This document shows, one piece after another, positions 11,966 to 52,242 of a stretch of DNA of 64,000 nucleotides. Numbering within the stretch: the stretch's first letter is position 1; every line of letters starts with the position of its first letter. A program made the translations under genes and the position numbers. Origin of the DNA: Nitrosopumilus sp. (lineage in GTDB: Archaea > Thermoproteota > Nitrososphaeria > Nitrososphaerales > Nitrosopumilaceae); assembly GCA_965203315.1 (NCBI GenBank), contig OZ241857.1, forward strand, positions 576,001 through 640,000, read 5' to 3'. The notes below the pieces were generated by a model that saw nothing but the letters and a program-made list of their open reading frames with translations, was not told where the DNA came from and did no database searches.

Positions 11966-12270
11966 ATGTCTTACCATCTCTGTTATACTAGATCGTTGAG
12001 ATCCAAGGAATGACACTAGTACACCAATAACGATAACAACGATCAGTCCTGTATAGTCTTCGGCATATCGGCACGGCAGTAAACGATTCGGTAGCCGTTA
12101 CTGTAAGGGGGTCTCAATAGATGTCATATTTTGCAGGTAGTCCACTCCAACGATCAAAGATATCTCTGATCAAAAACAATACCACATCTCTAGATGGTGT
12201 AGTACTGTTTGCTCACCCACATCAAACTTCCACCACCTATTCCCCCATCTACGACAATAGTAATCATGGG
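11966..12270 (-). pseudogene. degenerate duplicate of the 3' end of the 1051-aa surface protein gene (15338..15649)
   Basis: ACTAGTACACCAATAACGATAACAACGATCAGTCCTGTATAGTC identical in both; alignment continues with indels to ATAGTAATCATGGG. Confidence 0.85.
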
Positions 12271-12296
12271 TTGGTTCTTTTAATTTAACTAGAGTT

Positions 12297-12480
12297 GGTA
12301 AATTGACAAATTTGGAAATAAATTTCAAAAATAACAATCTGTGTATTAAAATATAAAAATAAGAGAACGATTACACCTACATTGTCTAGTGCTTAAAAAA
12401 TTATAACAAATTAGGCATCGATAGATGTATTTTCAATTAATATGCGCCATTTATTATTGCCTTGTATTACAATTCCAACT
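12297..12480 (-). mobile_element. remnant of the IS6-type element at window start (right end plus last transposase codons)
   Basis: Reverse complement matches 428-608 (GGAATTGTAATACAAGG..AATAAATGGCGCATATT..GAAAAT ... CAAATTTGTCAATTTACC). Confidence 0.75.
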
Positions 12481-13004
12481 TTTATGTGACATTATGAAGT
12501 TATGGAAGAGTTTTGTCAACTTAGAGAAAACACAAAAACATAAAAAACCTTTAACAAAAAAGTAAAACTCTGGAATTAAAACGTATTTTATACAGCATAT
12601 GGTCTTACTACCGCTCACGTTCTTTTGGTTTCTGTGTATTTGTGTACAATTCTGTACAATTATGTACGAACGTACAATATTTTTGCAGTGTCTTTGTTTT
12701 TTATTTTTAATTCCAATAAATTACAGAGTACGTGTTATTTTTTCTGTAATTTAAAACATAACGGATTATTTTAATCAACAAATAGTGTTTATGTGAAAAT
12801 GAATTATACATAATATCTAGCCATAATTTTATTAGATAAACAAAATATAAAAAGTATATGATATAATGTCAGATGCGATTTTCGAGGCATGTGATTTTAT
12901 GCACGATATCCTTGTTTCAAAAATATTTTGTAAACATTCAGATCTAGTATTCATCTATTACGATTGTGGTAATTGTAGATTATGTCAATATGCAGAACAT
13001 AAGA

Positions 13005-13904
13005 TCAATCCGGAATGGCATTCATAAGTGTGGACGGATCTAACTTATATTTGATTGGCTCATATGATATTCCAAAGTAATCTAGATGTTTTGAAAAATG
13101 TTCCAGCATGTTCCCGTCTGCCATTGCAATCCATTTTATATTACGTTTATCTAACTCGGATTTGTTTTGATCCGATAATTTATCTGCAATAAATAATTGA
13201 GTATCTCTAGCTATTGCTCCATCAGCACTTTCTGGATTGCCAAGTCCCATTAATTTAACTTCGCATCTTATGTATTTTCCATCATCTCTGGTTAGAAAAA
13301 AATCAGATTCTCTAGGATTGTTCGATTCCGGAGTAATTTGATTTTGATAATGCTTCAAGTCAACTTTTAACAGTCGGCACAAGGTGTACATTAACGGCTT
13401 TTCAATCTGTTTGCCCATAGTGCTCCAAATGCCTCCTCTCAAACCTGCTCTCATAACAGCTATGGCATTTATCACTATCAATGACTCATCAATTGACAAG
13501 TTTATGCTGACTTGGTTTAATGTTATTGTTATTGATATGTTTATGTTATCCTCTTTAATTAAGTCATTTATGTGTTCCAATAAATCATCATAATGTTTTA
13601 TTGATGCGTCTAAAACTATAGATTTTGTTGTAGAATGATAAATATTGTTAATTGATTTCAAGTTCAATCCCGAATTCCAAGCAATATCCTCTTTGTCAAG
13701 ATCTTTTGATAGCATATTTTGTTTGTACCAATCATTAGTTATGGAGTTATTTTTTAGTTTTGCAGACACAATCTTGCTAAAGAAACCAATCACTCTGTCT
13801 AAAAATACCACATCAATATGTTTTTGTATGATTTCTCTATGATTTACCTCTAATAGTAAGCTCTTAATTATTTCTACTTTGTGCTCTCTAGACAATCTTT
13901 CCAT
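13005..13904 (-). CDS. Type II restriction endonuclease, CfrBI-like family
   Basis: RAGLRGGIWSTMGKQIEKPLM, RESDF, RCEVKLMGLGNPESAD (PD-(D/E)xK); overlaps the upstream MTase. Confidence 0.75.
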   Translation of the reverse strand: MERLSREHKVEIIKSLLLEVNHREIIQKHIDVVFLDRVIGFFSKIVSAKLKNNSITNDWYKQNMLSKDLDKEDIAWNSGLNLKSINNIYHSTTKSIVLDASIKHYDDLLEHINDLIKEDNINISITITLNQVSINLSIDESLIVINAIAVMRAGLRGGIWSTMGKQIEKPLMYTLCRLLKVDLKHYQNQITPESNNPRESDFFLTRDDGKYIRCEVKLMGLGNPESADGAIARDTQLFIADKLSDQNKSELDKRNIKWIAMADGNMLEHFSKHLDYFGISYEPIKYKLDPSTLMNAIPD

Positions 13905-15159
13905 TACGAACCAGTACTCTCTTTATTTCTTTGACATATTTGGATTCCTTTTCAATTAGTAAATATTTTCTATCATTTTCAATGCACGACATACCGACAG
14001 TACCAACACCTGCAAATGGATCCAACACTAGATCACCCACATAGGAATAAAATTTTACAACATCACTAGCTAGTTTTTTTGGAAACGTGGCAGGATGAAC
14101 TTTATTTGCGGTTGGTCCAATGTTCCAGACATTAGTCATCTCATAATCTTCTTTTATTTTACTAGATTCAATTATATCATCATCATATTGCTTCATATTC
14201 CAATCAATCAATTTATCCGTCTTTTTTCTATACACCATAACATACTCTACTATTAGGTTGGGTTTGTATCCTAATGGTTTACGATGCTGAAAGAAACCAC
14301 CGTTTCTATTTTTTGCAGATGGTGCAGGCTTTTTCCATATTATGTCATCAATAAATTCAAATCCAATCTTTTCAAGTCTTGCATGTATGTCAAACGGTAT
14401 TGCATATCTTTTACTCGAATGTTTTCTAGAAGTACGCGGAACAATTATGGGAGATGTGTTCAATACAAAAAATCGACCTTCAGATGTGATTCGGTATACT
14501 TCAGAAAATACTCGTTCAAGAAAGTCTAGATACTCTTCGTAGCTTTGATAAATCGAATAATCTCGTGCATTATAATAGGGCGGAGATGTAAAGGTCAAGT
14601 CGACAATCTCGCCATCGATCTTTTCAAGTACTGACAGTGCATCGTTGTGATAGATTCTGTTCTCGAACGTCTTTTTGTAATCAGAATCCACAACACCAGA
14701 ATTTGAGGATTTGGGTTGAATAAACTCTCGTATTAATTCGTTTTTATGTTTTTTGAGAATCTTTAAACGATTTTTGACTTTTGTGTCAGTTTTAAAACAA
14801 TTTAATGCTCTAAGAGTTTGTAATACTAGCTTTGGATCTGGATCATGAGATAATGATATCAGTACATCTACATTCTCTCTATTTCGTTGCCGACCGATAG
14901 TGGAGATTATCTCTCTCTTTACGATGGAGTTAGTTTCTTGATGGTAAAACTTTACAAGAAATTTAATGTCATGTGCAGTTAGAGTAGTTTGACCCAGCTG
15001 TTTTATTATCGTGATTTTTCTATCTTTGTTTACTTTTGATGTGTCTGTGGATTTTTGGTCAGATAACATGGATGTCAAATACTTTATAGTTTCGGACTTA
15101 CTTGATATGGTTTGAAGTCCTTTCAGTTTGGTGTTTCTATTCAGTGTGCTTTTCATCAT
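13888..15159 (-). CDS. N4-cytosine DNA methyltransferase with N-terminal HEAT-like repeats
   Basis: TSPPYY, HPATFP, DPFAGVGT; N-terminal helical repeats (IVKREIISTIG, DPDPKLVLQTLRAL). Confidence 0.88.
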   Translation of the reverse strand: MMKSTLNRNTKLKGLQTISSKSETIKYLTSMLSDQKSTDTSKVNKDRKITIIKQLGQTTLTAHDIKFLVKFYHQETNSIVKREIISTIGRQRNRENVDVLISLSHDPDPKLVLQTLRALNCFKTDTKVKNRLKILKKHKNELIREFIQPKSSNSGVVDSDYKKTFENRIYHNDALSVLEKIDGEIVDLTFTSPPYYNARDYSIYQSYEEYLDFLERVFSEVYRITSEGRFFVLNTSPIIVPRTSRKHSSKRYAIPFDIHARLEKIGFEFIDDIIWKKPAPSAKNRNGGFFQHRKPLGYKPNLIVEYVMVYRKKTDKLIDWNMKQYDDDIIESSKIKEDYEMTNVWNIGPTANKVHPATFPKKLASDVVKFYSYVGDLVLDPFAGVGTVGMSCIENDRKYLLIEKESKYVKEIKRVLVRNGKIV

Positions 15160-15310
15160 GATATTTAAAGATCCAATCTATTTAAGAGTTGATGAGATCG
15201 TTTGTAGAAGAATATTATCTCGATATGAAAGCATAATGATCTAAACCATTTGACTGAATACTAGATCACCATATTCGAGATTAGAGTAATTGTCTCACGT
15301 TGATCGCGTT

Positions 15311-18300
15311 TTAGCTCTCGGACGAACTAGATTTATCTGTCTTTACCATATACGATATCCTAGATCGTTGTGATATCATAAACGATACTAGTACACCAAT
15401 AACGATAACAACGATCAGTCCTGTATAGTCTGTTTGATACATCGGCACAGCAGTAAACGATTCGGTAGCTGTTACCGTAACAGGTTCTTGATAGAGGCCA
15501 TATTCTACAGGTAATCCGCTCCAACGATCAAAGACGTCTCTGATCAAAAACAATACAACATCACGAGATGGGGCATATAGGATTGTCTGTTCACCTCTGT
15601 CAAATGTTCCGCCACCGATACCTCCATCTACAATAATAGTAATCATGGGCTTGTATACAGCTTTTATCGATGTCGGTTGTAGAATGTTGATATCAAATCT
15701 ACTTTCAGTCTGTATTGTACCATCTGATATCTCGGACATGTTATACACATATCTGGTATCACCGATCTGTAGATCTTGTGGAAACGACACCTGTATAGGA
15801 CCACGTCGAACATACAGTTGATCAGGAGTCTCGACATTTCCCGTAACATCATCATACGATATATTGACTGTGGTTAGTATCTCCTCATCGTCTGTGTTTG
15901 CTGTACGAATAGTTACTAGTGTATCATCTAGTATTTGATACTGTTCTGATTTTTTCTTGGCGATATAACCCTCTTTGGTAAAATCTATTACAACATCATA
16001 GGTACCGGCACGAATGGGTTCTAGTACGATATTGTTTCCTTGTACATTAAACGGAATGTCCGATGTGACATCTATTGATATGTCCTCATCTATTCTCGTC
16101 GTAATGGTATATTTCATGTCTACATACAATACACTACTTCCAAAGTCAACCTGTAATTCATTGTCATCAAATGTATTGTAGAATATATCGACTGTACTAT
16201 TTGTCAGACCATATGGAGTACTAAACACATAGAATGCAGAGTCTTGATAACATTGATACATTGAACCATTACCAGTACAATCTGTATCTATCATGTGACT
16301 AATATCGGATATGGGTTTGTCATCTGCCATCAGATATGCATATACGGGAAATTGCTCCCCTGCACGTACTTTATCTGGTGATTCTAGCAATACTGCAAGA
16401 TCAGATATTGGTTCTGACTTTACAGTCTTTACGATATCATTGTTTATGGCAATTGCCGACATACTAGGAAATTTGATATCTGATTTGCCGTATATGATCG
16501 TGATTGGATTGTTCAATTTGATACGATCTTGTTCAAATTGTACTTCGTCTGATATCAGTCGTATATCGATACTACCAAATGTATCTTGAGGGTTTATGGT
16601 ATTACCATCAGAATCTTGAATCGATATCAAAAACATTGGATAGTACTCACCAGTCAAATGTGGTAATGGAGTCAGATGCAGATGGTACTCTTTTGATTCT
16701 GTTATCTTAACTGTACTAGTAGTTGTAGGTAGATTCGGTGCAGATACATGTATCTCATGCTCTCCTATTATACTACCAGATATTGGAATCAACATGGTCT
16801 GTGTATGTACACCATCATGTAGGAATATTTTCATAGTATCGTGCTCTAGATTCTGAGATGTAATGGTGTATGGTACGAGTTCTATACCAAACGCGGGAAA
16901 CTCTGATTCGTCCAAGATCTCATTACAGTCATCATATGTGTTTAGAATATCTAGTGCGTCCAAAGTACCATCAGGGTTGTTGAGTGTGTCATCTAATGTA
17001 TCCTCTCGTGTGTCATTCAGCAACAAATCTAGTTTGTATATTATATCTACGATATCATTTTCTACATTCAGTTTTAATGCAAGCTCTTTACAATATTCGA
17101 CTAGATCTCTTTCTTGTACCGTACTAAACATAGACACCAACAAGAATGCTGTAGAATCTGTACTTGGAGGGAATATCATACTCTTGAGACTGGTTGGCCG
17201 TTCATACTCTACTTGTTTTACTGGATCGTTGGTTTTGAATAGTTGTGCAGCAGTATACTTTACAGAGACATCGACATATGCAGTACCGTATCCAGGTACA
17301 GATACTGTTATGGTAGATGTACCTGGCCCATGTGTAAAGAACTTGTGATAAAATATACCATCGTTGATGGTAATCCTGGCATCATCATCTAACGAGTCTT
17401 GTGTGCTTGGGCCGTCTCCGAGTGATACTATTCTATCTCCAGAGACGTGTATTGTTCCAGATATTGGTACGGGCGTACGCATTATATTGTCATTTTCGTC
17501 AGTTATCCAACCAAATACATATCCAAACGAGTTTGCAGACACAGTATCAGACGATATGCCGATCTCTATCTTTGATGAATCTCCATTATATGTAATAGGT
17601 ACAGTATCGGATATTGATTGATCTGTGTATGCTGTTAGTGTACCTTGTCCATGTACTATAACAGTAAAGAAGGTATGTGCATCATCTTTAGGAATTGTGA
17701 TATAATCAGGTGCGTCGATATTTGTGCCAACTAACGATACTCGTATGTCAGATTCAGCGTATACGGGGTTGTTAAAATCATCGACAAGATATATCGCAGC
17801 TGTGATCTCTTGAGCAGACGTCTCTTCTGGTAGATACAGCTGTATGTTATAATCACTAGATATCGTATTGTGTATGGTACTGCTAGCCTTCCAAAAGTCT
17901 TGACCAACCTTTGCGATAATGTTTGCATCACCTATGCCGTGTGTCGTTATGTCAAATGTACCATGGTTTCTTCCTTGTGGTATTGTGATATAATCAGGAA
18001 TACGTAGAATGTCTGAGTCAGATGAGAGTTTCACTTGTACGGTATCAAGAGCTGCATCTCGTACAAATACGCCCTTGTATGTACCTTGCTGTAGTATGTG
18101 TCGCGGTACAAAGAGATTCTTTACCGCATCGACCTCTTGTTCTATGCTAGATGATATTGTTATCGGCTGTGAGAGTGTAATATTGTCGTATAGTACAGTG
18201 ACATTTGTCATACCTTGCTTGATGGGTGTGATATCAAATGATAGTGAGTGTTCACCTTTGTACCATATCTTTGTAACAGTCATGTTGATAAAATTTGAAT

Positions 18301-18466
18301 CAAACACAAATGTCACATCGGTCTTATCATCTGCGGCTGTTCTGACCAGCATTCCTTGATCTGTACTATCTACAAACATATTATTTGGTATGTTTAACTG
18401 ATCTGCATACGCGTCAACCGTTGTAATTATTACTATGCCCAACAAGATTAGTAAATACTTTGACAA
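15311..18466 (-). CDS. large acidic multi-Ig-like surface protein with C-terminal membrane anchor
   Basis: Signal peptide (AYA/D), beta-strand-rich repeats, C-terminal TM; SD-like AGGAGTG before TTG; follows the pilin gene. Confidence 0.8.
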   Translation of the reverse strand: MSKYLLILLGIVIITTVDAYADQLNIPNNMFVDSTDQGMLVRTAADDKTDVTFVFDSNFINMTVTKIWYKGEHSLSFDITPIKQGMTNVTVLYDNITLSQPITISSSIEQEVDAVKNLFVPRHILQQGTYKGVFVRDAALDTVQVKLSSDSDILRIPDYITIPQGRNHGTFDITTHGIGDANIIAKVGQDFWKASSTIHNTISSDYNIQLYLPEETSAQEITAAIYLVDDFNNPVYAESDIRVSLVGTNIDAPDYITIPKDDAHTFFTVIVHGQGTLTAYTDQSISDTVPITYNGDSSKIEIGISSDTVSANSFGYVFGWITDENDNIMRTPVPISGTIHVSGDRIVSLGDGPSTQDSLDDDARITINDGIFYHKFFTHGPGTSTITVSVPGYGTAYVDVSVKYTAAQLFKTNDPVKQVEYERPTSLKSMIFPPSTDSTAFLLVSMFSTVQERDLVEYCKELALKLNVENDIVDIIYKLDLLLNDTREDTLDDTLNNPDGTLDALDILNTYDDCNEILDESEFPAFGIELVPYTITSQNLEHDTMKIFLHDGVHTQTMLIPISGSIIGEHEIHVSAPNLPTTTSTVKITESKEYHLHLTPLPHLTGEYYPMFLISIQDSDGNTINPQDTFGSIDIRLISDEVQFEQDRIKLNNPITIIYGKSDIKFPSMSAIAINNDIVKTVKSEPISDLAVLLESPDKVRAGEQFPVYAYLMADDKPISDISHMIDTDCTGNGSMYQCYQDSAFYVFSTPYGLTNSTVDIFYNTFDDNELQVDFGSSVLYVDMKYTITTRIDEDISIDVTSDIPFNVQGNNIVLEPIRAGTYDVVIDFTKEGYIAKKKSEQYQILDDTLVTIRTANTDDEEILTTVNISYDDVTGNVETPDQLYVRRGPIQVSFPQDLQIGDTRYVYNMSEISDGTIQTESRFDINILQPTSIKAVYKPMITIIVDGGIGGGTFDRGEQTILYAPSRDVVLFLIRDVFDRWSGLPVEYGLYQEPVTVTATESFTAVPMYQTDYTGLIVVIVIGVLVSFMISQRSRISYMVKTDKSSSSES

Positions 18467-18490
18467 CTAAACACTCCTGATAATTTTACA

Positions 18491-18510: not shown

Positions 18511-18522
18511 TTGATTGCATCT

Positions 18523-18999
18523 CTAAAAGCGTGTAACAGTCACTACACCCGTGGTCACTACTTGACTGCCATCAATGGTACCTGTCACTGTTATGGTATA
18601 AGAATCACCGATGTCCAAGTCATCAGAGTCGGGTATCGTACTAGTAAAGTAGTTTGTTTCACTGCTGTCCATGTTAGGAGTGTTGGCAAAAGTTATGTCA
18701 CATCCAGTGTCACAGTTTGCAGTAAAGTTTAGTACAGTACTGGTAGGACTAGCTATACCTAACGTAATTCCATTCAGAGTTACTGTTACGGAATCTACCT
18801 CTGATGTACCAACGTTCTTTACTTGAACAGTCAATACAGCGTCACTAGTGCCTGCCTTTTTGAGACTAGTCTCCCCAAGTTGCAGACCTTCGTTTGTTGC
18901 TCCACCGAATACACCAGAGCCAACTATGCCTAGCGCACCTGTAGCCATGACAGCTGTAAGTGCAAGCCAGATCAGATTCTCTTTGGTAAACTGTACCAC
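18523..18999 (-). CDS. probable major archaeal type IV pilin
   Basis: N-terminal hydrophobic helix, VQVKNVGT motif, IGDSYTITVTG C-terminal strand; GAGGAG SD upstream of GTG. Confidence 0.7.
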   Translation of the reverse strand: MVQFTKENLIWLALTAVMATGALGIVGSGVFGGATNEGLQLGETSLKKAGTSDAVLTVQVKNVGTSEVDSVTVTLNGITLGIASPTSTVLNFTANCDTGCDITFANTPNMDSSETNYFTSTIPDSDDLDIGDSYTITVTGTIDGSQVVTTGVVTVTRF

Positions 19000-19150
19000 C
19001 TATATCAGCTCCTCAATTTGTACAACGATATCTGTTGTTTGCATTGATGTGGTATACCTGATTTGTATTAAGGAGGAAATATACACATCACTAGCCAGAT
19101 CAGTAAAATTCATAATGTACGTATAATAGTCAATGTGAAATATAGTCAGG

Positions 19151-19828
19151 TTGGATATGGCAATCATACATGGTATTTCAGATAGTGAATTAGAGTTGCT
19201 AAGTCGTTTACCCAACGAGGTCGAAAGCATCTCTGATATCAATAGAGTCAAGAGGGAGTTTGAAGAAAAAATGACAAAGACGAAAGGATTTTGGGGTGGT
19301 TTAAAGCGTTGGAACTACCAACGCCAAATCAACAAATTCGATGGTAGAGAGTTCAAAGTTTGGTTGGCAGGTGCAATCGGTGAAAAAAGAGTCATAGATA
19401 GATTGTCACATCTAGATAACTCTTATCATGTCTTTGGGGGAATAAAACTTCAACCACGATATGGTGACTGGGCTCAAGTCGATTGTTCCGTAGTCGGTCC
19501 AACCGGCATATACATGATCGAGATCAAGAATTGGTCTGATCAATATGCACGTAATCCAATAGATGATCCACACGAACAGGCACAAAGAGCTGGTTTGGCA
19601 TTATACAAATCCATCAATCAGCTTTTTTGGCGTGGAAATATTAGAGTCACTAATGTCATACTGCCTATCAAGAACAATATAATTTACAGAAAAAGTTATC
19701 CACATGTATTAATTGTGAATATCAATAACATTAACACCTTTATCACAAACAACAAAAGGAATTACTTGGACACCAGTAAGATCAAAAAGATTGTTAGACA
19801 TCTATCTAGTCATACTAATTCATATTGA
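19151..19828 (+). CDS. NERD-domain nuclease
   Basis: GAIGEKRV...QVDCSVVGPTGIYMIEIKNW...PHEQA motif set. Confidence 0.85.
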   Translation: MDMAIIHGISDSELELLSRLPNEVESISDINRVKREFEEKMTKTKGFWGGLKRWNYQRQINKFDGREFKVWLAGAIGEKRVIDRLSHLDNSYHVFGGIKLQPRYGDWAQVDCSVVGPTGIYMIEIKNWSDQYARNPIDDPHEQAQRAGLALYKSINQLFWRGNIRVTNVILPIKNNIIYRKSYPHVLIVNINNINTFITNNKRNYLDTSKIKKIVRHLSSHTNSY

Positions 19829-19980
19829 TCTACTCTACTAGACTTTTATCAGCACACTCTGACATAAAATCAGAGCGTGTGGTTGAACATATTGTTATTT
19901 GAACAATTTCTGATATACCTGATCATTTTTTGACGTATTTTAAACGTTGAATTTGTATGCGATCATGATGCATTTGTGGA

Positions 19981-21439: not shown

Positions 21440-21585
21440 AATTTGTGGACATCATATACCTAACAGACTATTTTAATAGTACATAATGTCACACATACAA
21501 ACGATAACACATTTAGCGATCATAGAATATTCATTTAAGATTATATCGATATTAGAGATATTCAATCACCATTGATGGAATTTCG

Positions 21586-26643: not shown

Positions 26644-26764
26644 GATCTCTTTGGTTTACATGGGAGGGTATTTTACAGGTAAATTATTGCAAGACTTGCT
26701 AGACGGCAAAAGTCGTTTGGACCATCTAATATTTACATAAAACTATGTACGCATAATCTTATAC

Positions 26765-28479: not shown

Positions 28480-28483
28480 CGTA

Positions 28484-37772: not shown

Positions 37773-37881
37773 TATGGGACACCCCTAGTCAGAAATTTGT
37801 TATCTGCTGTATGATACTTTATGGCTACGGAGGTTAACGCAACTGGTTTATTGTTTGACATCAGACAACAACCCGATTGTA

Positions 37882-38688: not shown

Positions 38689-38896
38689 TCTTACTTTTGA
38701 GAGATATGTCTGGTTATAAAAGTATGTGATTTTAATGATTGATTAGTGAATGAGAGATTAGTTGATCTCGAATGATCTCACCATATGAATGACATTCAAA
38801 GTAGCGTTCTCATATCTCATATTTTACAATCTTTCATGCTTAAAAACACAGTTCAAAGATTACACAGAATCGACACTCAATGCTTGACAGTCTGTT

Positions 38897-39841: not shown

Positions 39842-40110
39842 CAGGAATGAAGACTAGATTGTGTAGACTTTTCTTGGCAATCTGTACATATACCAAAGTA
39901 CAAAAGTATCTTCCAATATGGCAATCCAAGAAACCATACATGTTTGTGAATATATACATCTTGTAATGACGGCGCATGTGTTATTTCTATAGGTAAAGAT
40001 TGTTCAAATGATGTCTTTTTGATTTCCGTAAGTAGATATTACGCACATACTAGTCTACGATCTAGTAGGAGAATACTTTTGCACTTTAGTATAGAATAAA
40101 AATGTTTGAT

Positions 40111-44200: not shown

Positions 44201-44419
44201 AAATCGATACTTTACAATATGTGATGTGTCTTTGCCACGATTCTCTAATGTAACATGTGTACCATTATACACAGCATGAATCTCTTCTTGCTTTTTCTGT
44301 TGATCAATACTTGATGATATTGTTGACGTGGTTGATGTCTCTAGTATGGTGGAGCCGACATATGTTCCCATACCAAGTATAGCTGTGATTATTATTGTGG
44401 CTGCGAGTACTTGATTCAT
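41285..44419 (-). CDS. large pilin-like adhesin (minor pilin N-terminus plus Cys-rich extracellular domains)
   Basis: N-terminal hydrophobic helix, LENRG motif and GEIITSFGNVI typical of archaeal minor pilins. Confidence 0.65.
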   Translation of the reverse strand: MNQVLAATIIITAILGMGTYVGSTILETSTTSTISSSIDQQKKQEEIHAVYNGTHVTLENRGKDTSHIVKYRFYDNTANLVREIQSDDLSGGTLDDNDSTLERRVPSINEYWPSNATSGEIITSFGNVIPISMDIDPNRNNTQTSTQGNSSNPINIGQSTLGGLGVSMSIVNYDITGKLYEGIRDRTGYQYDLSSYRTVQDDTYWIAAVRDRGEKITATISMDNSKFRYNPDKTFTKSYRDNWGPELLRDHTIHKLVGKKQVEYIPATDRYPGYLLFKNTVDGSTEEICSDVTPNDKTYSKKCKKRSHNADCYDIFPRKTASGYGSYTNTATTRMLIAHNQACPQSQVSDKVLIQLDDSLKGQTLLLHTFLEPGLHVQILNSESNRLNDYTMTDNYFWNRFGYSYSGGLHGSGAAFTFPSCPSNYLPIVETRCTYGTFPTHGRYTETGVSNVIFKMQNPHPLNRPIAAHYDILGEQSNDDGCTFNQDSYSYSYRSSRYTTYSINLGAMNYGTFWCNSYNSNATHSQLFVNFPTSGTNYILITKEQVPLFNTQTYLTRDHVFSEMNRNESHLGDDQLTEAKIWLLNIPDEDQDRILTVTDLPPNTPYEIRSEKHVLVTGHSDSSGTISLRKDQVFLPARDDTPIELSIFPNSAIWIGDINNGVILDGYNSNSIQFDWQENSVYIPQAFVRLVFPKALTVTDLHIDDTSIPYLNKRYDDNSAMYIPLIPKSSLIKMKINGEYIELATKWIENNLRVKIIPEQESSDYVVSYNGAATSLAKVQTTGFYMASADGYLSAVLDIDFAGSSESTYSTKTKSQVGVPVCVGKVTDTWRWYGSIMSALKCSSAFVQMYDPPDGAKYRDWDEINEKQRGALDYYSTFAKQSAYNQRIHDSINSGSLGVLALELTVLKNMELYSTGILYYGTSAQSQPSTSLSNTFNVINKLGLSFPLQNAKTTVQIPVESGDMVEFVVNAYVSSSGLPVPGNDLLVSKFPPKPTACISALNSARGGSCTSYSNDFDFTSGSFSISQSTANIHVKNGLLLILQD

Positions 44420-44519: not shown

Positions 44520-45367
44520 ATGGTGAAGAGGCGACAGTTGGAGGCATTTGGGGAGATATTTGGTTCTCTTGAATCTGTAAAACGATTCAAAGATAGGAAC
44601 TACAAATGTCCATTTGATGTTCGCATAGACTCTTGTGACAAGCCTAATCGAACTGTTCACAAATACGGAAACTGCTCCGCACGTATCGGAGATCAAAACA
44701 GATAATATGTCCAAGAAGGTTTTATGAAGGTGACTATCAAATCTTAAAGGATATACGCAACTTTGTTTGGGGAAACAGCACCACAGTAAACATACATGAC
44801 GAAGTGAAACTATCCAAAAGTCTAGGATCTGACAAATTTGATTATGGTAATTTGGACTGGATCATGACAGATTGCGAAGATGCTGATAGATTTATTGGTG
44901 TTGAGATTCAATCTGACTCCACAACCGGTACTGGCTCATTTGCCGATGCAATAGATGATCTATTAAATAACAGGCTGCAAGAAAGTTACACCTTTGGCTT
45001 GAATACAATGGCATCTTTCAAGGGATTTCTGCCTCAATTCATCTTTAAAGGCCAGTTATTTGATGAGTGGAAGATGCCATATGTGGCAGTTATGCAGGAT
45101 GAACTATGGGAAAAGTTTGTCTCAAAGTTTAGAATACAATCACACATGATAGACAAATACACTACAGAAACATTTTTGTTTTTCATATACTCGTTGAAAA
45201 AGTCAAACGATGGATATCACATAATCATGAACAAGGTCATGGCCACTAGATGGGTTGATCTGTTGTTATCATTTGCGGTAGATGGAAAACTATTGATAAA
45301 TTATAACGAAGTCAAAGAGATAATAAAGAGAAAGATCGACAAGTATGAGCCAATCTCAACATTCTAA
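44520..45367 (+). pseudogene. NotI-family restriction endonuclease, frameshifted
   Basis: CPF..C.K...GNCS then 1-nt frameshift at ~44701 into IICPRRF...EVKL...GNLDW...GVEIQS; four-Cys metal site typical of the NotI family. Confidence 0.8.
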
Positions 45368-46411
45368 TCCTGTATCCAAAAATTTTTTAATTCGCTGTTC
45401 AGCGTGTTTCAAATATCTCTTGCTTGTGTCAATTCCTATACCGCGCTTGCCATATTTTAACGCGGATATTATGCTTGTGCCTGTACCAACAAATGGATCA
45501 AGTACTATACCATCTTTAGGACATGTCGATTTTATTGGTATCTCTAACAATGTTGTTGGATAAACTGCACAATGAATATCTTTACGATGTGTGTCTTCGG
45601 GTACTATTGACCATAGATCAGTGGGCATAAAACCCTCTGATTTTTGTTCAATGACATAGTATCCATTCATCTGTAGTTCTCTAGTTCTGCCACTTAGTCG
45701 TTCACTATCTCCATGTGATGTTCTCTGTTGACCACGTATGGTCATTCTGAAGTCAACTGTTTTGCCGTTTGCCATGTTATCTATTGCTTGATCAAGTGCA
45801 CGTAATGCATTCTCTTTCTCACTAGTTGTGAGTTTTGTTGATGTGTTTATCTGCTGTCTGTATCTGACACCACTTGTACCCGTAATTGATACCAAACGAC
45901 CATTACGTCTTTTAGGTTGGCTATTGTGCTTGATCAGTATGCTCTTTCTATCGTAATAGTATTTTGGATTCTTTACAAAATGAAACACATACTCATGCAA
46001 ATCTCGTAGTCTGTCTTTTGCACTCTGAGTCATACGAACCTTGTTCCATATTATGTCGTTACGCAGTATCCATCCTCTATCTTTTAATGCTAGTGCTACT
46101 CTCCAAGGCATTCCCAAGAGATCTTTATTTACATACTTGTCACCAATATTGAGCCAGAATGATCCTCGATCATCTAGAACTCTATAGACTTGATCAAAGA
46201 CGTTCAATAGATTTGAGAGATACTCGTCAAAACTACTCTCAAGACCTATACTGCCTTTAACATCATATTCACGTTGACCCCAATACGGTGGTGATGTTAC
46301 AACACAATTTATCGACTTTGCTGTAAACCCCTTCAATACATCTTCTGCCCTACCATGTAGTAAATCAAACTGATCTACGTTATGCGCTTGATAATATGTG
46401 ATATCCATCAT
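45356..46411 (-). CDS. N4-cytosine DNA methyltransferase convergent with the NotI-like gene
   Basis: TSPPYWG, LRNDIIWNK, HCAVYP, DPFVGTGTS. Confidence 0.92.
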   Translation of the reverse strand: MMDITYYQAHNVDQFDLLHGRAEDVLKGFTAKSINCVVTSPPYWGQREYDVKGSIGLESSFDEYLSNLLNVFDQVYRVLDDRGSFWLNIGDKYVNKDLLGMPWRVALALKDRGWILRNDIIWNKVRMTQSAKDRLRDLHEYVFHFVKNPKYYYDRKSILIKHNSQPKRRNGRLVSITGTSGVRYRQQINTSTKLTTSEKENALRALDQAIDNMANGKTVDFRMTIRGQQRTSHGDSERLSGRTRELQMNGYYVIEQKSEGFMPTDLWSIVPEDTHRKDIHCAVYPTTLLEIPIKSTCPKDGIVLDPFVGTGTSIISALKYGKRGIGIDTSKRYLKHAEQRIKKFLDTGLEC

Positions 46412-46830
46412 CTGTTTTGATCGTTTTTTAGATAAAGAACTCGGTATTAATAATTTTGTGTGAATCTATATAACAAGCGATCGTCTTTATGAATGATCCA
46501 TATAGATTTGATAGTCTGCAAGAGATAATGGTAAATTATGATGGTGGCAGTATCGACTCAAATGAACTCCATACATCTGAAGCAAAATCTTGAATTAATC
46601 TAAATATGGATTCTGACATATCTAGCTCTGATTCTTGTGACGTATCATTTAGAGTACTTATGTTATCGTCAGCCGCAATCGAGGCAGTGAGTGGAACATT
46701 AATGACATTCGTTCATGGTATCTGTCGTAACTGCCACAAGTTACTTGGTTCATGCATAGTTAGACCGGTTTATATTAAGAACAGACATTAGTTAAGAGAA
46801 CCATGTTTTGTTCAAAAAGTGTCATCAGAG

Positions 46831-47331
46831 TTATCTGCGAACATGTTTAAAATCTTTAGGCATGTGGAATCTGGAATTGTACAGTAGAGTTAAAATCTCA
46901 TCAGCCTCGTCAAAGCTTTTAATTCCTTTATCTTCCAACATTATGATCAATCCAATTAATCCTGTATGTTTTATTTTTAATTTTAATGCTGATTTTCGTG
47001 CATCGCCATCATCTAATACACAATAAACACTATTCTCATAACCTCCTAATTTTAGATAGGTCAAGATTACATCTATCTCGCCCTCTTTTAATTTAGATGT
47101 GGTTAATTTGAAATTCATAATCTCTACAAATGAATTTCTTTCTGAATATGTGAGTTTACCTTCTTTAATTAGTTTTTGTACATCTATATTTAATGCCTTG
47201 GCATCCACCTCTTTTTGAACATATTTTGGGATCACTAGTTCATGTCCCAACTTTAAAATATCATCAAAGACATCAGGTCTATTGATAAGATCAAATATTC
47301 CAATCAACACAGACGCGTCTAATATCTTCAT
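46831..47331 (-). CDS. vapC: PIN-domain (DUF3368-like) toxin, copy 1
   Basis: ILDASVLI, GEIDVI, LDDGDARK, HTGLIGL. Confidence 0.85.
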   Translation of the reverse strand: MKILDASVLIGIFDLINRPDVFDDILKLGHELVIPKYVQKEVDAKALNIDVQKLIKEGKLTYSERNSFVEIMNFKLTTSKLKEGEIDVILTYLKLGGYENSVYCVLDDGDARKSALKLKIKHTGLIGLIIMLEDKGIKSFDEADEILTLLYNSRFHMPKDFKHVRR

Positions 47332-47942
47332 AACTCTAGTTTCAGTAATCCTCTATCAAGCATCTTACGTTGCATATCATATACTGTTTCACCTAATAGA
47401 TCTCCTCCTCGTCCACCACTAAGATTTTCTTTTGCAATCATTGAAAATATATGCTCTTCGATATCGGGTTTGAGTTTTTCATATGTTTTAGAACCTTTGG
47501 TCATATCTGGATACTCACAATACATGAAAGATAGCATCTCTGGAATAGTTACGTCATTTAGAGTATCTTTATAGTTGTGAAATACCCATCCCATAGTTGG
47601 ATTAAATGCGTCTTCAAACTCTGGGAAACCGCCCTTCTCTTCTCCAATCATTCTGGCGTACTCTGTGCTATGCTTGGTTAATTGAATAGTATCGTCCTGT
47701 TCGATCAGTAGTTCCATTTGTACTAGACGTTCCAAAGTATCGTTCAAAACTGCACTGTAGGGACCATCATCCTTTATTGTAAAATTACACCACTCTCTTA
47801 TTTCTGGATATGGAGCACCTAGCATGTACATCAAGACTTGAAGTTTCTGTCTACCGTATATTGGCTCGTCATCCACATATACGAGTAAAAGTATGTACTT
47901 TTCGAGTTCGCTGATCTCTAGAGTTGCAGTGTCTATTACCAT
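47328..47942 (-). CDS. putative antitoxin: SocA/Panacea(YwgA)-like wHTH fused to UPF0175-like domain, copy 1
   Basis: GRQKLQVLMY...GPYS; C-terminal LSGGRGGDLLG...LDRGL; ATGA overlap with the PIN gene. Confidence 0.7.
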   Translation of the reverse strand: MVIDTATLEISELEKYILLLVYVDDEPIYGRQKLQVLMYMLGAPYPEIREWCNFTIKDDGPYSAVLNDTLERLVQMELLIEQDDTIQLTKHSTEYARMIGEEKGGFPEFEDAFNPTMGWVFHNYKDTLNDVTIPEMLSFMYCEYPDMTKGSKTYEKLKPDIEEHIFSMIAKENLSGGRGGDLLGETVYDMQRKMLDRGLLKLEL

Positions 47943-48275
47943 GTTATTTCAACGGTATAACGACATAAAAACATTTTGAAATTGTACAGTCATGGTACCA
48001 GTGCTGACCTGAAAGCATTTTGTAGATCTGAAACAAAGTCTTGAATTAATCCAACTAGGGTTCTGCTATGTCTGATTCTGATCCTTGTGACGTATCATTC
48101 AGAGTGTTTGTGTTATCGTTAGCCGCAATCGAGGCAGTGAGTGGAACATTAATGATATTAGTTCATGGTATCTGTCGTAACTGCTACAAGTTACTTGGTT
48201 CATGTATAGCTAGTTGTTTATATTAAGAATAACTAGCCAAGAGAATAGTATTTTGTTCAAAAAATATCATAAGAG

Positions 48276-48776
48276 TTATCTACGAATATGTTTAAAATCC
48301 TTAGGCATGTGGAATTTGGAATTGTACAGTAGGGTTAGAATCTCATCAGCCTCGTCAAAGCTTTTAATTCCCTTGTCTGCCAACATTAGGATCAATCCAA
48401 TTAATCCTGTGTGTTTTATTTTTGCTTTTGATGATACTTTTCGTGCATAGCCATCATCTAGTACACAGTAGACGTTATTTTTGTATCCTCCTAGTTTTGT
48501 ATAGGTCAAGATTACATCTATCTCGCCCTCTTTTAATTTACGCGCTGTTGATTTGAAATGCATAATTTCTATAAATGAATTTCTTTCTGAATATGTGAGT
48601 TTACCTTCTTTAATTAGTTTTTGTACATCTATGTTTGTTGACTTGGCTTCCACTTCTTTTTGAACATATTTTGGGATCACTAGTTCATGTCCTAATTTTA
48701 AAATATCGTCAAAGACATCTGGTCTATTGATAAGATCAAATATTCCAATTAACACAGACGCGTCTAATATCTTCAT
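48276..48776 (-). CDS. vapC: PIN-domain (DUF3368-like) toxin, copy 2
   Basis: Near-identical to copy 1. Confidence 0.85.
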   Translation of the reverse strand: MKILDASVLIGIFDLINRPDVFDDILKLGHELVIPKYVQKEVEAKSTNIDVQKLIKEGKLTYSERNSFIEIMHFKSTARKLKEGEIDVILTYTKLGGYKNNVYCVLDDGYARKVSSKAKIKHTGLIGLILMLADKGIKSFDEADEILTLLYNSKFHMPKDFKHIRR

Positions 48777-49387
48777 AACTCTAGTTTCAGTAATCCTCTG
48801 TCAAGCAACTTGCGTTGCATGTCATATACCGTTTCACCCAATAGATCTCCGCCTCGTCCACCACCAAGATTTTCTTTTGCGATCATTGAAAATATATGCT
48901 CTTCAATATCGGGTTTGAGTTTTTCATATGTTTTAGAACCTTTGGTCATATCTGGATACTCACAATACATGAAAGATAGCATCTCTGGAATAGTTACGTC
49001 ATTTATGATATCTTTGTGGTTCTGAAATACCCATGACATTGCTGGATTAAATACATCTAGAACTTCTGGAAATCCGCCTTTCTCTTCTCCTATCATTCTA
49101 GCGTACTCTATACTATGCTTGGTTAATTGAATAGCATCGTCCTGTTCTACTAGTAGATCCATATGTACTAGACGTTCCAGAGTATCGTTCAAAACTGCAC
49201 TGTAGGGACCATCATCTTTTATTGTAAAATTGCACCACTCTCTTATTTCTGGATATGGATCACCTAGCATATACATCAAGAGTTGTAGTTTCTGCCTACC
49301 GTGTATCGGCTCATCATCCACATATACTAGCAAAAGTATGTACTTTTCTAGCTCGCTGATCTCTAGGGTTGCAGTATCTATTGCCAT
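48773..49387 (-). CDS. putative antitoxin (wHTH + UPF0175-like), copy 2
   Basis: Near-identical to copy 1. Confidence 0.7.
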   Translation of the reverse strand: MAIDTATLEISELEKYILLLVYVDDEPIHGRQKLQLLMYMLGDPYPEIREWCNFTIKDDGPYSAVLNDTLERLVHMDLLVEQDDAIQLTKHSIEYARMIGEEKGGFPEVLDVFNPAMSWVFQNHKDIINDVTIPEMLSFMYCEYPDMTKGSKTYEKLKPDIEEHIFSMIAKENLGGGRGGDLLGETVYDMQRKLLDRGLLKLEL

Positions 49388-49720
49388 GTTATTTCATCTG
49401 TATAACGACATAAAAACATTTTGAAATCGTACAGTCATGGTACCAGTGCTGACCTGAAAGCATTTTGTAGATCTGAAACAAAGTCTTGAATTAATCCAAC
49501 TAGGGTTCTGCTATGTCTGATTCTGATCCTTGTGACGTATCATTTAGAGTGTTTGTGTTATCGTTAGCCGCAATCGAGGCAGTGAGGGGAACATTAATGA
49601 TATTAGTTCATGGTATCTGTCGTAACTGCTACAAGTTACTTGGTTCATGTATAGCTAGTTGTTTATATTAAGAATAACTAGCCAAGAGAATAGTATTTTG
49701 TTCAAAAAATATCATAAGAG

Positions 49721-50354
49721 TTATCTACGAATATGTTTAAAATCCTTAGGCATATGGAATTTTGAATTATACAGTAGGGTTAGAAGCTCATCAGCCTCGT
49801 CAAAGCTTTTAATTCCCTTGTCTGCCAACATTAGTATCAATCCAATTAATCCTGTATGTTTTATTTTTAATTTTGATGCTGACTTTCGTGCATTACCATC
49901 ATCTAATACACAATAGACGTTATTTTTGTGTCCTCCTAGTTTCAGATAGGTCAAGATTACATCTATCTCACCCTCTTTTAATTTTCGCGCATTTGGTTTG
50001 AAATTCATGATCTCTGCTAATGAATTTTTTTCTAAACTGGTGAGTTTGCCTTGTTTGATTAATTCTTGTACATCTATAGTCACGAACGGAATTGTTTTCT
50101 TGTTTACTTTTGCATATGTGAGATCAGAGACGAAATTTACCTCTAGCGGAACGGATAATGCCAAATTGTGATACTATGCACTCGGAAAATTATTATGTTC
50201 ACGACTATATATTTGATGGCTTAGCCTCTAACTCTTTTTGAACATATTTTGGGATCACTAGTTCATGTCCTAATTTTAAAATATCATCAAAGACATCTGG
50301 CCTATTGATAAGATCAAATACGCCAATCAACACAGACGTGTCCAATATCTTCAT
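49721..50354 (-). pseudogene. PIN toxin copy 3, interrupted by a MITE
   Basis: MKILDTSVLIG start present at 50354; removing 50077-50207 plus TA restores colinearity with copies 1 and 2. Confidence 0.85.
50077..50207. mobile_element. 131-bp IS630-type MITE
   Basis: Imperfect TIRs TAGTCACGAACGGAATTGTTTTC / GAAAATTATTATGTTCACGACTA; TA duplication; absent from the paralogous copies. Confidence 0.85.
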
Positions 50355-50965
50355 AACTCTAGTTTCAGTAATCCTCTGTCAAGCAACTTGCGTTGCATAT
50401 CGTATGCAGTTTCGCCCAACAACTCTCCTCCTCGTCCACCACTAATCTTTTCTTTTGCAATTATTGAAAATATGTGTTCTTCAATATCTGGTTTGAGTTT
50501 TTCATATGTTTTAGAACCTTTGGTCATATCCGGATACTCACAATACATGAAGGATAACATCTCTGGAATAGTTACGTCATTTATGATATCTTTATGATTA
50601 TGAAATACCCATCCCATAGTTGGATTAAATGCGTCTTCAAACTCTGGGAATCCACCTTTCTCTTCTCCAATCATTATGGCGTACTCTATGCTATGTTTGG
50701 TTAATTGAATAGTATTGTTTTTTTCGACTAGCATATCCATGTCTACGAGACGCCCCAAAGTATCGTCTAAAGATACACTGTATGGACCATCATCCTTTAT
50801 TGTAAAATCACACCACTCTCTGATCTCTGGATATACATCACCTATCATGTACATCAGGACTTGGAGCTTTTGCCTACCGTATATGGGCTCATCATCCACA
50901 TATACTAGCAAAAGTATGTACTTTTCTAGCTCGCTGATCTCTAGGGTTGCAGTATCTATTGCCAT
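50351..50965 (-). CDS. putative antitoxin (wHTH + UPF0175-like), copy 3
   Basis: Paralog of copies 1 and 2 (KISGGRGGELLG). Confidence 0.7.
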   Translation of the reverse strand: MAIDTATLEISELEKYILLLVYVDDEPIYGRQKLQVLMYMIGDVYPEIREWCDFTIKDDGPYSVSLDDTLGRLVDMDMLVEKNNTIQLTKHSIEYAIMIGEEKGGFPEFEDAFNPTMGWVFHNHKDIINDVTIPEMLSFMYCEYPDMTKGSKTYEKLKPDIEEHIFSIIAKEKISGGRGGELLGETAYDMQRKLLDRGLLKLEL

Positions 50966-51012
50966 GTTATTTCATCTGTATAAAGACATAAAAACATTCT
51001 GAAATCACACAG

Positions 51013-52242
51013 TCATGGTACCGGTGCTGACCTGAAAGCATTTTGTAGATCTGAAACAAAGTCTTGAATTAATCCAATTAGAGATTCTATCAGATCTGGT
51101 TCTGTCTGTGATTCATTATCTTGCGGGTTTGATCCTCGGGATGTATCGTTTAGAGTATCTGTGATGTCGTCAACTAGAATCAATGTATTGGATGAAACAT
51201 TAGTGACGTCGTTCATGGTATCTATCACAACTAGTACATCTGTTGTACCGTTAGGTAAAGTCTCTTCAGATATAGTTGATAGCTCGTCTGAAGAGATCAT
51301 GTCCAAAGATACATTAGATAAAGAGTCGTCCGACACATCTAGAGTATTGTTGTCCAAAGTATCATTAGAAATTAGAGATACAATATCTGTACCTATCTCA
51401 TTTGTTGTATCCGTGATATCATCTGTGATATCATTGTTATCGTCAAGATCATTAAATGTACCGTCAAAGATACTGTCAATAACAGACGTATCATCAAATA
51501 TTGGAATACTATCTGAGATATCTATACCACGTGTCAGAGATACCAGATCAAATGTAAACAACTGCCTATCTTGTATTGTTTGTGGAATGTACATCACACC
51601 CGATACGGGTAAACCAATGTCATCTTGGAACTGCAAATGCCCTGATATCAGCTCACCATCAAACGATACACGAAACTCTGCAATGTCGAATTCGGTATAC
51701 TCGTCAATTATCACTGGCGAGTATAGATGATTGGCAGGTATGTCATCACCAAGTCTTGGGTCGAGGCTAGAGATACGTGCATCATGGTATATCCAGAATA
51801 GGGTATTTGATAGGGTATCAGCTACATATCTAGAAGATAGTGATCGTACATCGTATGTTGTATCATCAATCAGTATGATATCGCCCATCATATCGCCTAT
51901 ATCGCCTATATCACCTGGCATATTATCCATCATATGGTCCAACACGTCATTCTGAATATGACTTTGTGTGTAATCTAGTGATATATCTGAGCCTATAGAG
52001 CTAGAGTTTGTTATGATTGTTTGTGCAATCCAGACGGTATTTGATCCAGATATGCCTGTATCCAGTATCAATAGTTGTAAGGTATAGCACAAGTGTAGTC
52101 TAGATATGTCACGATTTATTGTCCGATAGTCACATATATCGTACACATATACGTCACCTGGTACAAATCCTCCAAACTCCCAACCATGTACGTTTGGTAC
52201 AAAAAACATAACTAGAATTAGAGACAACAAGTAAATCTTCAT
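51013..52242 (-). CDS. secreted acidic protein with Asp/Thr/Ser-rich C-terminal region (backbone)
   Basis: Signal peptide (VHG/W), very acidic low-complexity tail. Confidence 0.75.
   Translation of the reverse strand: MKIYLLSLILVMFFVPNVHGWEFGGFVPGDVYVYDICDYRTINRDISRLHLCYTLQLLILDTGISGSNTVWIAQTIITNSSSIGSDISLDYTQSHIQNDVLDHMMDNMPGDIGDIGDMMGDIILIDDTTYDVRSLSSRYVADTLSNTLFWIYHDARISSLDPRLGDDIPANHLYSPVIIDEYTEFDIAEFRVSFDGELISGHLQFQDDIGLPVSGVMYIPQTIQDRQLFTFDLVSLTRGIDISDSIPIFDDTSVIDSIFDGTFNDLDDNNDITDDITDTTNEIGTDIVSLISNDTLDNNTLDVSDDSLSNVSLDMISSDELSTISEETLPNGTTDVLVVIDTMNDVTNVSSNTLILVDDITDTLNDTSRGSNPQDNESQTEPDLIESLIGLIQDFVSDLQNAFRSAPVP

Follow-up and report, generated by a model that had tools for sequence, protein, structure and literature searches.

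How does defence cargo come to lie at fixed junctions of an archaeal chromosome when no integrase is found beside it? Ammonia-oxidising archaea are abundant and hard to manipulate, and the growth of their defence islands is little understood. The question is raised by a 64-kb stretch of Nitrosopumilus sp. (the window, C1:576001-640000), part of a 2.47-Mb archaeal genome in 7 contigs that is 99.98% complete and carries amoA and one archaeal small-subunit rRNA; mcrA was searched for in this genome and not found. The main contig has a guanine-plus-cytosine (GC) content of 38.6%; along the window, nearly all of whose genes lie on the minus strand, values range over 31-42%. Here a type-IV-pilus-like gene cluster, called the backbone below, is spread apart by restriction-modification (RM) and toxin-antitoxin-like (TA-like) genes. 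A first-pass annotation had noticed that three times the order runs from a backbone gene to cargo A, then to a diverged copy of the 3' end of that gene, then to cargo B. Self-comparison of the window confirmed this at all three loci: diverged orphan 3' ends of the upstream gene lie behind the inserted cargo. Are these stranded ends relics of target duplication, of exchange between alleles or of transposon activity? In what follows C1 and C5 are contigs of the source genome, G and L numbers denote genomes of the genus and loci, and X1-X5 are sequencing runs; positions of features are collected in the table.

Diverged gene ends behind inserted cargo

At locus 1 the orphan tail matches the end of the gene for a 1051-amino acid (aa) surface protein with 80.8% identity over 312 columns (E 3e-76). 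Is it a fresh duplicate that has decayed, or an allele with a history of its own? Measured against the parent, dN is 0.16 and dS 0.53, giving an omega of 0.31 (bootstrap 0.18-0.53; 107 codons). The closest database homologue of the 1051-aa protein (P0002, 61% aa identity over 1023 residues) was used as outgroup to polarise the 18 aa differences, which placed 5 on the orphan branch and 6 on the in-gene branch and left 7 unresolved. Finding at least 6 of 11 on the in-gene branch has a probability of 0.005 if only the orphan drifted, neutrally, and the gene evolved with an omega of 0.2. By its substitution pattern, orphan tail 1 is a diverged functional allele that decayed later, not a decayed fresh duplicate. 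What made its 5' border? A truncated insertion sequence (IS) has its terminal inverted repeat 0-2 nt from the start of the tail, so that an IS transposing into a copy of the 1051-aa gene, and not a homology arm, produced this border; the original orphan tail may have been longer. Full copies of the related 1470-bp IS stand at C1:575164-576633, 446433-447902 and 471369-472882. These resident copies are 96-99% alike while the fragment is as diverged as the tail itself, so that it looks foreign or old.

The match at locus 2 is weaker, detected in the self-comparison only with a shorter word size. Orphan tail 2 corresponds to the last 25-30 codons of the TadC-like gene through the stop, being 74% identical over 89 nt to 30421-30509 (E 5.5e-9 against the window and ~2e-7 against the whole genome).

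Locus 3 is a tandem array (46572-51238) with a period of ~1450 nt, in which the two distal units are 90.5% identical to each other and 84.6% identical to the proximal one. One tail of the 409-aa gene lies within the gene (P) and three are orphans (M2, M1 and the terminal tail T). P has a 27-nt segment that is absent from all three orphans. How are the four tails related? On their 5' side M1 and M2 agree with T at 35 sites and with P at 7, the shared 27-nt gap included; on their 3' side they agree with T at 1-2 sites and with P at 26-27. The breakpoint, near column 175, was picked for maximal contrast, which inflates the significance of the Fisher test (P 1e-10 to 1e-11). M1 and M2 also carry a 1-nt deletion. 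Judged by these sites they are chimeras of the terminal and the in-gene tail, and the tails have thus undergone homologous recombination; such chimeras are what one expects if T and P crossed over unequally, and just as well if a circle was looped out between the two. In a comparison of units U1 and U2 the first 230 columns contain 3 differences, against 134 in the other 1225 (Poisson P 4e-8). Their genes have a dS of 0.29-0.35 with an omega of 0.13-0.23, as under purifying selection, and the third unit has a dS of ~0.47. The cassettes are therefore diverged, selected copies joined by nearly identical tails. This pattern fits the stacking of different alleles through tail crossovers, or old duplicates with recent conversion of the tails.

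What kind of cargo do the tails bracket? Several names given in the first pass needed correction. Its 'HNH RM' behind tail 1 does hold a methylase and a protein resembling a restriction endonuclease (REase), but HNH was not confirmed, the 231-aa protein matching only the PADLOC type II REase model. The DpnII-like RM of locus 2 has both its endonuclease and its methylase, the endonuclease gene being split by an IS630-like element. The subtilase, taken for a defence cassette, is a surface protein and no recognised defence gene; three repeats at its C-terminus are 45-59% identical to the C-terminal half of the backbone 415-aa protein (52331-53578) and may represent a shared domain for surface display or pilus association. 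The 'NotI-like RM' that ends locus 3 has its methylase, but the NotI-like part was not confirmed, and the convergent 187-aa open reading frame (ORF) matches no family. Repeat-flanked cargo at locus 3 consists of TA-like pairs, with no RM. In these pairs the 166-aa protein matches PADLOC PDC-S70 and, in a protein atlas, clusters of DUF3368-type PIN proteins (score 0.96, 210/256 features), so a TA-like reading of the 204/166-aa pairs is reasonable from their family matches. The third PIN gene is broken by a miniature inverted-repeat transposable element (MITE) at 50073-50213.

A fourth instance was found in the window beyond the coordinates given in the first pass. Its orphan corresponds to the last 36 codons of a secreted 308-aa gene (36 aa, 58% identity, E 9e-7), with a DNA match of 88.6% between 6128-6171 and 6815-6858, and the 112-aa and 120-aa membrane proteins on its two sides are 24-25% identical. 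In layout this module resembles toxin/immunity orphan modules.

Is the architecture found elsewhere in the genome? A comparison of the genome with the 3' ends of 1,665 non-nested ORFs (minimum length 150 aa) yielded 81 downstream matches on the same strand, 31 of them with at most 5 copies. A filter that was set after viewing this list (a match of at least 44 nt reaching the last 100 nt of the gene, no full paralogue and no repeat beyond the stop) is passed by six genes: the 308-aa, 1051-aa, TadC-like and 409-aa genes of the window and two others, at C1:1566149 and C1:1505760. Four of the six thus fall within 46 kb, or 1.9% of the genome (binomial P ~2e-6, which is overstated as the region was defined post hoc). 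At C1:1566149-1568926 (L060) two 207-bp repeats (1566526-1566732 and 1568720-1568926), identical at 206 of 207 positions and sharply bordered at either end, take in the last 187 nt of a 188-aa CDC48-N-like gene. They flank a 1987-bp insert of 33.9% GC with a TIR-domain gene, a 188-aa ORF and a MITE copy. This is a recent event of the same architecture and shows that the architecture is still being made; it could be a true target duplication or an exchange with a near-identical strain. A search for the empty site in 60 other genomes of the genus gave hits in 55, all to the N-domain of full-length CDC48, and such matches say nothing about the empty site. The case at C1:1505760-1512325 (L079) is weak: a 66% copy of the last ~240 nt of a 186-aa gene, 5.8 kb downstream of it, starts ~70 nt after the end of an IS6/IS240-like element and adjoins an AAA_21/DUF4276 pair. 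Another candidate, C1:565023-565156 (end of the gene at 553378-556737), was rejected as a copy of a ~135-nt MITE with more than 40 copies. The 204/166-aa pair itself belongs to a family of ~25 genomic copies with 65-91% identity. In one of them, at C5:228758-230775 (L078), a tail of the 409-aa gene is split around the cassette, its 3' part before and its 5' part after, and the whole sits between two copies of a 141-nt MITE that has more than 80 genomic copies; it may be a MITE-bounded mobile form.

A pilus-like backbone with shared cargo hotspots

Is the cargo a peculiarity of this strain, or do these junctions receive cargo in relatives too? The gene order of the backbone (in aa, 213-285-490(SNase-like)-216-309-415-409-1044-225-ATPase-TadC-158-1051-811) recurs at 24-66% aa identity in Nitrosopumilus and Nitrosarchaeum genomes (G009, G093, G098, G082, L052/L076). 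The cluster takes ~20 kb in relatives and ~51 kb here, from 58471 down to 7837, with cargo at four junctions accounting for the extra length. G009 (~19.5 kb) and the Nitrosarchaeum locus L076 have it in compact form, and parts of it are visible in G093, G098, G082, G084 and L051-L057. The TadC-like protein has matches with E<=1e-10 in 13 of 101 genomes of the genus, source included, five of them near full length at 36-55% identity; the 1051-aa protein matches strongly only in G009 and reaches E<=1e-3 in 6 of 41 genomes, source included. No backbone protein had a match in PHROGs.

Distances between neighbouring backbone genes in relatives, read off tblastn coordinates and hence approximate, answer the question. 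Between the 1051-aa and 811-aa genes the gap is ~30-120 nt in G009, G093, G098 and L076 and 5.0 kb here. That between TadC and the 158-aa gene is 43-56 nt in G009, G093 and L074, 0.65-1.9 kb in L051, G082, G084, G098 and L076, and 11.4 kb in the source genome. The 409-aa and 1044-aa genes are separated by 0.3-0.8 kb in G009, L052 and L076, by 7.3 kb in G093 and by 6.6 kb here, and the 1044-aa and 225-aa genes by 0.2-0.5 kb in G009, G098, L052 and L076, by 4.1 kb in G093, by ~5.7 kb in G082 and again by 6.6 kb here. The cargo differs: an MNT-HEPN pair follows TadC in L076 and the same nucleotidyltransferase comes after it in L053, and a type II methylase lies between the 1044-aa and 225-aa homologues of G093. 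The comparison of cassette content between the same backbone genes, proposed as a check in the first pass, thus finds other cargo in relatives, and the four intergenic junctions are therefore cargo hotspots common to them.

The 490-aa backbone protein with the staphylococcal nuclease-like (SNase-like) domain (55556-57028) is in the company of the T2SSE ATPase and the TadC/UpsF-like protein, and from its gene content the cluster could handle DNA. Repeats of another kind occur in relatives. In three of them short tandem repeats (periods ~60-90 nt, 80-95% identical) lie at the 3' part of the 409-aa homologue or immediately after it: 43504-43932 in G009 (L041-L043 joined), 4898-5144 in L052 and 4984-5164 in L076. 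In G082 (L048-L049 joined) a family of 175-380-nt repeats lies in and around the backbone (2888-3364, 6600-7160, 18759-19547 and 28025-28222), one copy standing directly behind the TadC homologue.

Table. Features of the window, in order of position
Feature	Position	Strand	Remarks
Fourth instance (308-aa module)	5699-7686	-	secreted 308-aa gene 6760-7686; 112-aa membrane protein 6419-6757; orphan 6079-6186; paralogous 120-aa membrane protein 5699-6061
Backbone 811-aa gene	7837-10272	-	directly after the 1051-aa homologue in relatives
Cargo B, locus 1	10305-11902	-	N6_N4 methylase 10305-11210; 231-aa type II REase-like protein 11207-11902
Orphan tail 1	11967-12270	-	decayed allele covering the final ~100 codons of the 1051-aa gene; three frame-breaking deletions, one stop
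Truncated end of diverged IS	12273-12483	-	identity to the 1470-bp IS 77%; its terminal inverted repeat adjoins orphan tail 1
Fragment of second multi-copy repeat	12503-12827		5 copies elsewhere; three long matches ~77%, a shorter one up to 84%
Cargo A, locus 1	13005-15159	-	CfrBI-like endonuclease 13005-13904; N6_N4 methylase 13888-15159
Backbone 1051-aa gene	15311-18466	-	surface protein with C-terminal membrane anchor; in-gene tail 15338-15649
IS with DDE_Tnp_1 transposase	19979-21440	-	12 copies elsewhere, up to 99.9% identical
1685-aa subtilase ('cargo B', locus 2)	21586-26643	-	surface protein
Solo IS end	26644-26697		resembles the terminus of the IS6/IS240-like element starting at 2127; between orphan tail 2 and subtilase
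Orphan tail 2	26756-26840	-	open copy of the TadC-like C-terminus with stop (read by eye)
Cargo A, locus 2	26911-30250	-	N6_N4 methylase 26911-27852; DpnII-like endonuclease, C-terminal piece 27849-28148; IS630-like element 28153-29614; 116-aa ORF 29900-30250
Backbone core	30434-34660	-	TadC/UpsF-like membrane protein 30434-32434; T2SSE-type ATPase 32427-33986; 225-aa protein
Fourth cargo site	35055-40998	-	MmeI-like RM; 268-aa coiled-coil protein; two TPR proteins
Backbone 1044-aa gene	41285-44419	-	
Terminal cargo, locus 3	44804-46411		N6_N4 methylase 45356-46411 (-); convergent 187-aa ORF
Terminal orphan tail T	46536-46732	-	
Three TA-like cassettes	46831-50965	-	each with a 204-aa protein and a 166-aa DUF3368-type PIN protein; separated by M1 (47990-48188) and M2 (~49435-49633)
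Backbone 409-aa gene	51013-52242	-	in-gene tail P ~51016-51238
Upstream backbone genes	52331-58471	-	415, 309, 216, 490 (SNase-like), 285 and 213 aa; syntenic in relatives

Exchange, duplication or transposition

Could the arrangement have been made by the assembler? Repeats of 74-90% identity might mislead it, and a chimera of strains was the risk named in the first pass. The stretch is present in five runs from three studies, X1-X3 possibly being the source sample and X4 independent. Contigs of X1/X2 and of X4 cover 12030-15416 (in X4 as three contigs, reaching 15431), 24485/24722-28183 and 29585/29873-30693 or beyond, with 0 differences. As the identical contigs of two studies bridge every junction of loci 1 and 2, there is no misassembly there, and an artefact joining strains is extremely unlikely overall. 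Run X5, with parts of loci 1-2 uncovered and a joint 12728>26481 (21 letters on one side, depth 330), was considered and is no evidence of an alternative form.

Which enzymes were at hand? The absence of an integrase from the window, claimed in the first pass, extends well beyond it. The tyrosine recombinase profile PF00589 has two weak or moderate hits in the whole genome (C1:1468056 and C1:412469), none of them within 160 kb of the window and the nearer one ~163 kb from its start, and serine recombinases gave 0 hits genome-wide. When 13 junction segments were compared all against all, neither a motif common to different loci nor an attC-like site emerged. Transposons are plentiful: for its genus the genome is rich in IS and MITE, with at least 12 copies of a 1451-bp IS, ~8 of the IS6/IS240-like element, ~11 of the IS630-like one and two MITE families of more than 40 and more than 80 copies, and the window has five DDE transposase genes. 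Scars of IS or MITE, which the first pass had missed, lie at or near junctions of all three loci, and IS/MITE activity contributes.

The repeats that bracket the cargo are the last 90-310 nt of the upstream gene, at three junctions and in one further gene. We give a little better than an even chance to the proposal that they were left by an additive exchange with diverged sibling alleles in which no site-specific recombinase took part. DNA transferred from another cell, with an allele of the backbone gene and the cargo lying downstream of that allele, would be anchored by homologous recombination inside the gene. The far side of the incoming DNA would be joined illegitimately, as we suppose for loci 2 and 3, or by way of an IS copy. 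The end of the resident gene and the resident cargo would then be left downstream as the orphan, from which an order of arrival would follow, though at each locus either tail may be the resident one. The repeats could later recombine with each other, so that cassettes would be duplicated or stacked and would loop out as circles.

Several results weigh against this proposal. The tails of locus 3 have a dN/dS of ~0.9 (0.4-2.2) and reveal no allelic history, so the first-pass view that all copies are diverged alleles stands for locus 1 and lacks a signal at locus 3. IS insertion followed by deletion may have shaped the border of tail 1. Flanking direct repeats were found within 600 nt of none of the 10 other TA-like cassette copies examined, DNA self-comparison of 13 related loci revealed orphan tails in none, and a search for the TadC tail at the protein level in four relatives was negative in all. 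No sibling allele near enough to reveal a donor was found, the best relative having 61-62% aa identity; scans of genomes and metagenome contigs with single proteins (the 1051-aa protein and TadC) returned no relative, and alignment-based scans only relatives at 35-56% aa identity. Among the contigs of four runs none showed a deletion or circle joint at the repeats of loci 1-2, Logan contigs dropping rare variants.

Was the cargo instead inserted in situ, just behind the stop, with a long duplication of the resident gene end whose copies then diverged in place? The TIR-domain insertion, with its nearly identical repeats and sharp borders, looks like this, and target duplication has been documented in bacteria for every type of RM system, the repeats being 46-423 bp long and sometimes overlapping the 3' end of a gene (PMC2853133). 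At locus 1, though, most of the divergence is synonymous and the aa changes are shared 5:6 by the orphan and in-gene branches, which is unexpected if the orphan alone drifted, and at locus 3 the in-gene tail has the 27-nt segment that every orphan misses, so we regard insertion with target duplication as an unlikely origin of the repeats. Scrambling by IS and MITE would need no incoming allele: transposition into backbone genes, then recombination or deletion between IS copies, would strand gene ends and import IS-flanked cargo. Much of the debris agrees with it, namely the terminal inverted repeat and the adjoining second repeat fragment at tail 1, the IS6-like solo end between orphan tail 2 and the subtilase, the element in the DpnII-like gene, the MITE in a PIN gene, the C5 cassette copy with its split tail between two MITE copies and the start of the weak sixth candidate close to an IS end. 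However, the 5' borders of orphan tail 2 and of the locus 3 tails yielded no IS-derived sequence, cargo A of locus 1 is flanked by a single truncated IS end where a composite transposon or IS26-like translocatable unit would have two IS copies with a target-site duplication, and an intact second allele of each gene end as well as the chimeric tails would stay unexplained; scrambling is thus an improbable source of the whole pattern.

The first-pass annotation went further and proposed integron-like stacking, in which cassettes routinely carry the gene tail as a homology arm and form ordered stacks at set positions in a mobile element. The count of four instances in 46 kb and two elsewhere, the hotspots common to relatives, the allelic tail 1, the recombination of tails without a site-specific recombinase, the agreement of the chimeric tails with the expected tail of a looped-out circle and the circularly permuted tail of the C5 copy all speak for parts of it. 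A dedicated capture system of this kind is nevertheless quite improbable: there is neither a recombinase nor a common junction motif, the border of tail 1 was made by an IS, the C5 copy is bounded by MITEs, tails or repeats are missing from the other cassette copies and related loci just mentioned, and at the fourth cargo site an orphan tail of the 1044-aa gene was searched for and not found. A bolder version, which we consider rather unlikely, treats the pilus-like island of marine ammonia-oxidising archaea as an exchangeable element that takes up and stacks defence cargo without any recombinase. Its cassettes would loop out on the tail repeats as circles with one tail each, would move to other cells, perhaps by means of the pilus and nuclease machinery of the island itself, and would enter sibling islands again by tail recombination; if true, the arrays would be ordered as in integrons and orphan tails would record the history of acquisition. 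Might the tails be kept for their own sake, as a silent reservoir that varies the C-termini of surface proteins in the manner of pilS or of orphan Rhs and contact-dependent inhibition (CDI) modules? The parents are surface or membrane proteins, the tails of locus 3 have recombined and the 308-aa module resembles a toxin/immunity-style orphan array, but tail 1 has three frame-breaking deletions and a stop, M1 and M2 have their 1-nt deletion, and the tails are short and encode conserved anchors without variable domains. This function is very doubtful.

Known recombinase-free systems and what the stranded ends may record

Where does additive exchange with sibling alleles stand among systems already described? 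Insertion of RM genes with long target duplication was reportedly described by Nobusato and colleagues in 2000. RM units of less than 20 kb bounded by direct repeats of more than 30 bp, without an integrase, were catalogued by Furuta et al. 2010 (PMC2853133), some of the repeats overlapping the 3' end of the upstream gene. The repeats were near-identical (44/46 to 417/423), and the authors note that none of the cases left after their filters was archaeal. According to their hypothesis RM units go through a cycle of insertion with long repeats, amplification on these repeats and release, which fits the amplification at locus 3 and the TIR-domain insertion. Like those units, the loci here have integrase-free repeats, and both endonuclease and methylase lie in inserts below 20 kb at locus 1 (CfrBI-like, ~3 kb) and at locus 2 (endonuclease split). 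They differ in that the direct repeats (~304-312, ~85-100 and ~200 bp) are 74-84% identical and allelic at locus 1, in that TA-like cargo is included, and in their linked mobile elements, with IS fragments or elements at loci 1-2 and a MITE in the TIR-domain insertion. Relatives with adjacent backbone genes are other species at 24-66% aa identity, unalignable at the DNA level.

Displacement of Rhs C-termini was reportedly described by Jackson 2009, Poole 2011 and Koskiniemi 2014. A process of similar form is the sequential displacement of effector-immunity modules of the type VI secretion system by homology-facilitated illegitimate recombination (Kirchberger et al. 2017, PMC5361080), which those authors relate to strings of orphaned Rhs 3' regions and liken to integron arrays without an integrase. 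There, as here, a main gene and its cargo are followed by orphan 3' pieces each with cargo of its own, and an upstream homology anchor is combined with an illegitimate join downstream. The difference lies in what is carried: a variable toxin 3' end with its immunity gene in their case, conserved membrane-anchor tails (74-81% nt identity) with unrelated RM or TA genes in ours, where only the 308-aa module would be compatible with the toxin/immunity form.

Homology-facilitated illegitimate recombination itself is said to go back to de Vries & Wackernagel 2002 and Prudhomme 2002. To our knowledge, no transformation or DNA-exchange system has been reported for Nitrosopumilus. Homology-facilitated illegitimate recombination combines one homologous anchor with one non-homologous join and gives additive integration without a recombinase (PMC3240628); experimentally it is known from bacteria only.

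Integrons are ordered arrays of promoterless-looking cargo behind a fixed point, the newest presumably nearest, and rely on IntI, attI and attC. The loci resemble them in the ordered array behind a fixed point and differ in having no IntI, attI or attC and no shared motif at cassette ends. Defence hotspots between conserved genes have been reported in P. aeruginosa core genomes (PMC10250203), in P2/P4 (bioRxiv 10.1101/2021.01.21.427644) and by Oliveira 2017 (PMC5635113). Variable defence cargo between the same conserved genes, with turnover that requires no dedicated mobility genes, is what we find too; the backbone here is archaeal and pilus-like, and orphaned gene ends apparently go undescribed in those reports as a recurrent footprint. 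The thaumarchaeal integrated elements listed by Krupovic et al. 2019 (PMC6563490) are defined by integrases, and the conjugative ones among them carry VirB4/VirD4, which Pfam searches did not find in this backbone.

The ideas of repeat-flanked, amplifiable RM units and of sequential displacement are thus already published, and the loci most fittingly count as an archaeal form of cargo stacking without a recombinase, a process already known, here with unusually clear fossils: allelic and chimeric tails and four cases in one pilus-like island. It is not claimed as a first archaeal example, archaeal reports after 2010 having been only lightly searched. Should exchange with sibling alleles be the right explanation, the bacterial models of RM units with long target duplication and of C-terminal displacement would both extend to archaea and to conserved structural genes, and defence cargo could build up at fixed junctions of a conserved archaeal operon through general recombination alone. 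Alleles diverged by ~20% would have recombined in this lineage, which implies DNA exchange between strains, and the stranded gene ends are fossils that could put acquisitions in order, given sibling genomes.

Outside the backbone, at 59468-63882 of the window, a type ISP restriction-modification gene is interrupted by an IS with a DDE_Tnp_4 transposase (60513-61733).

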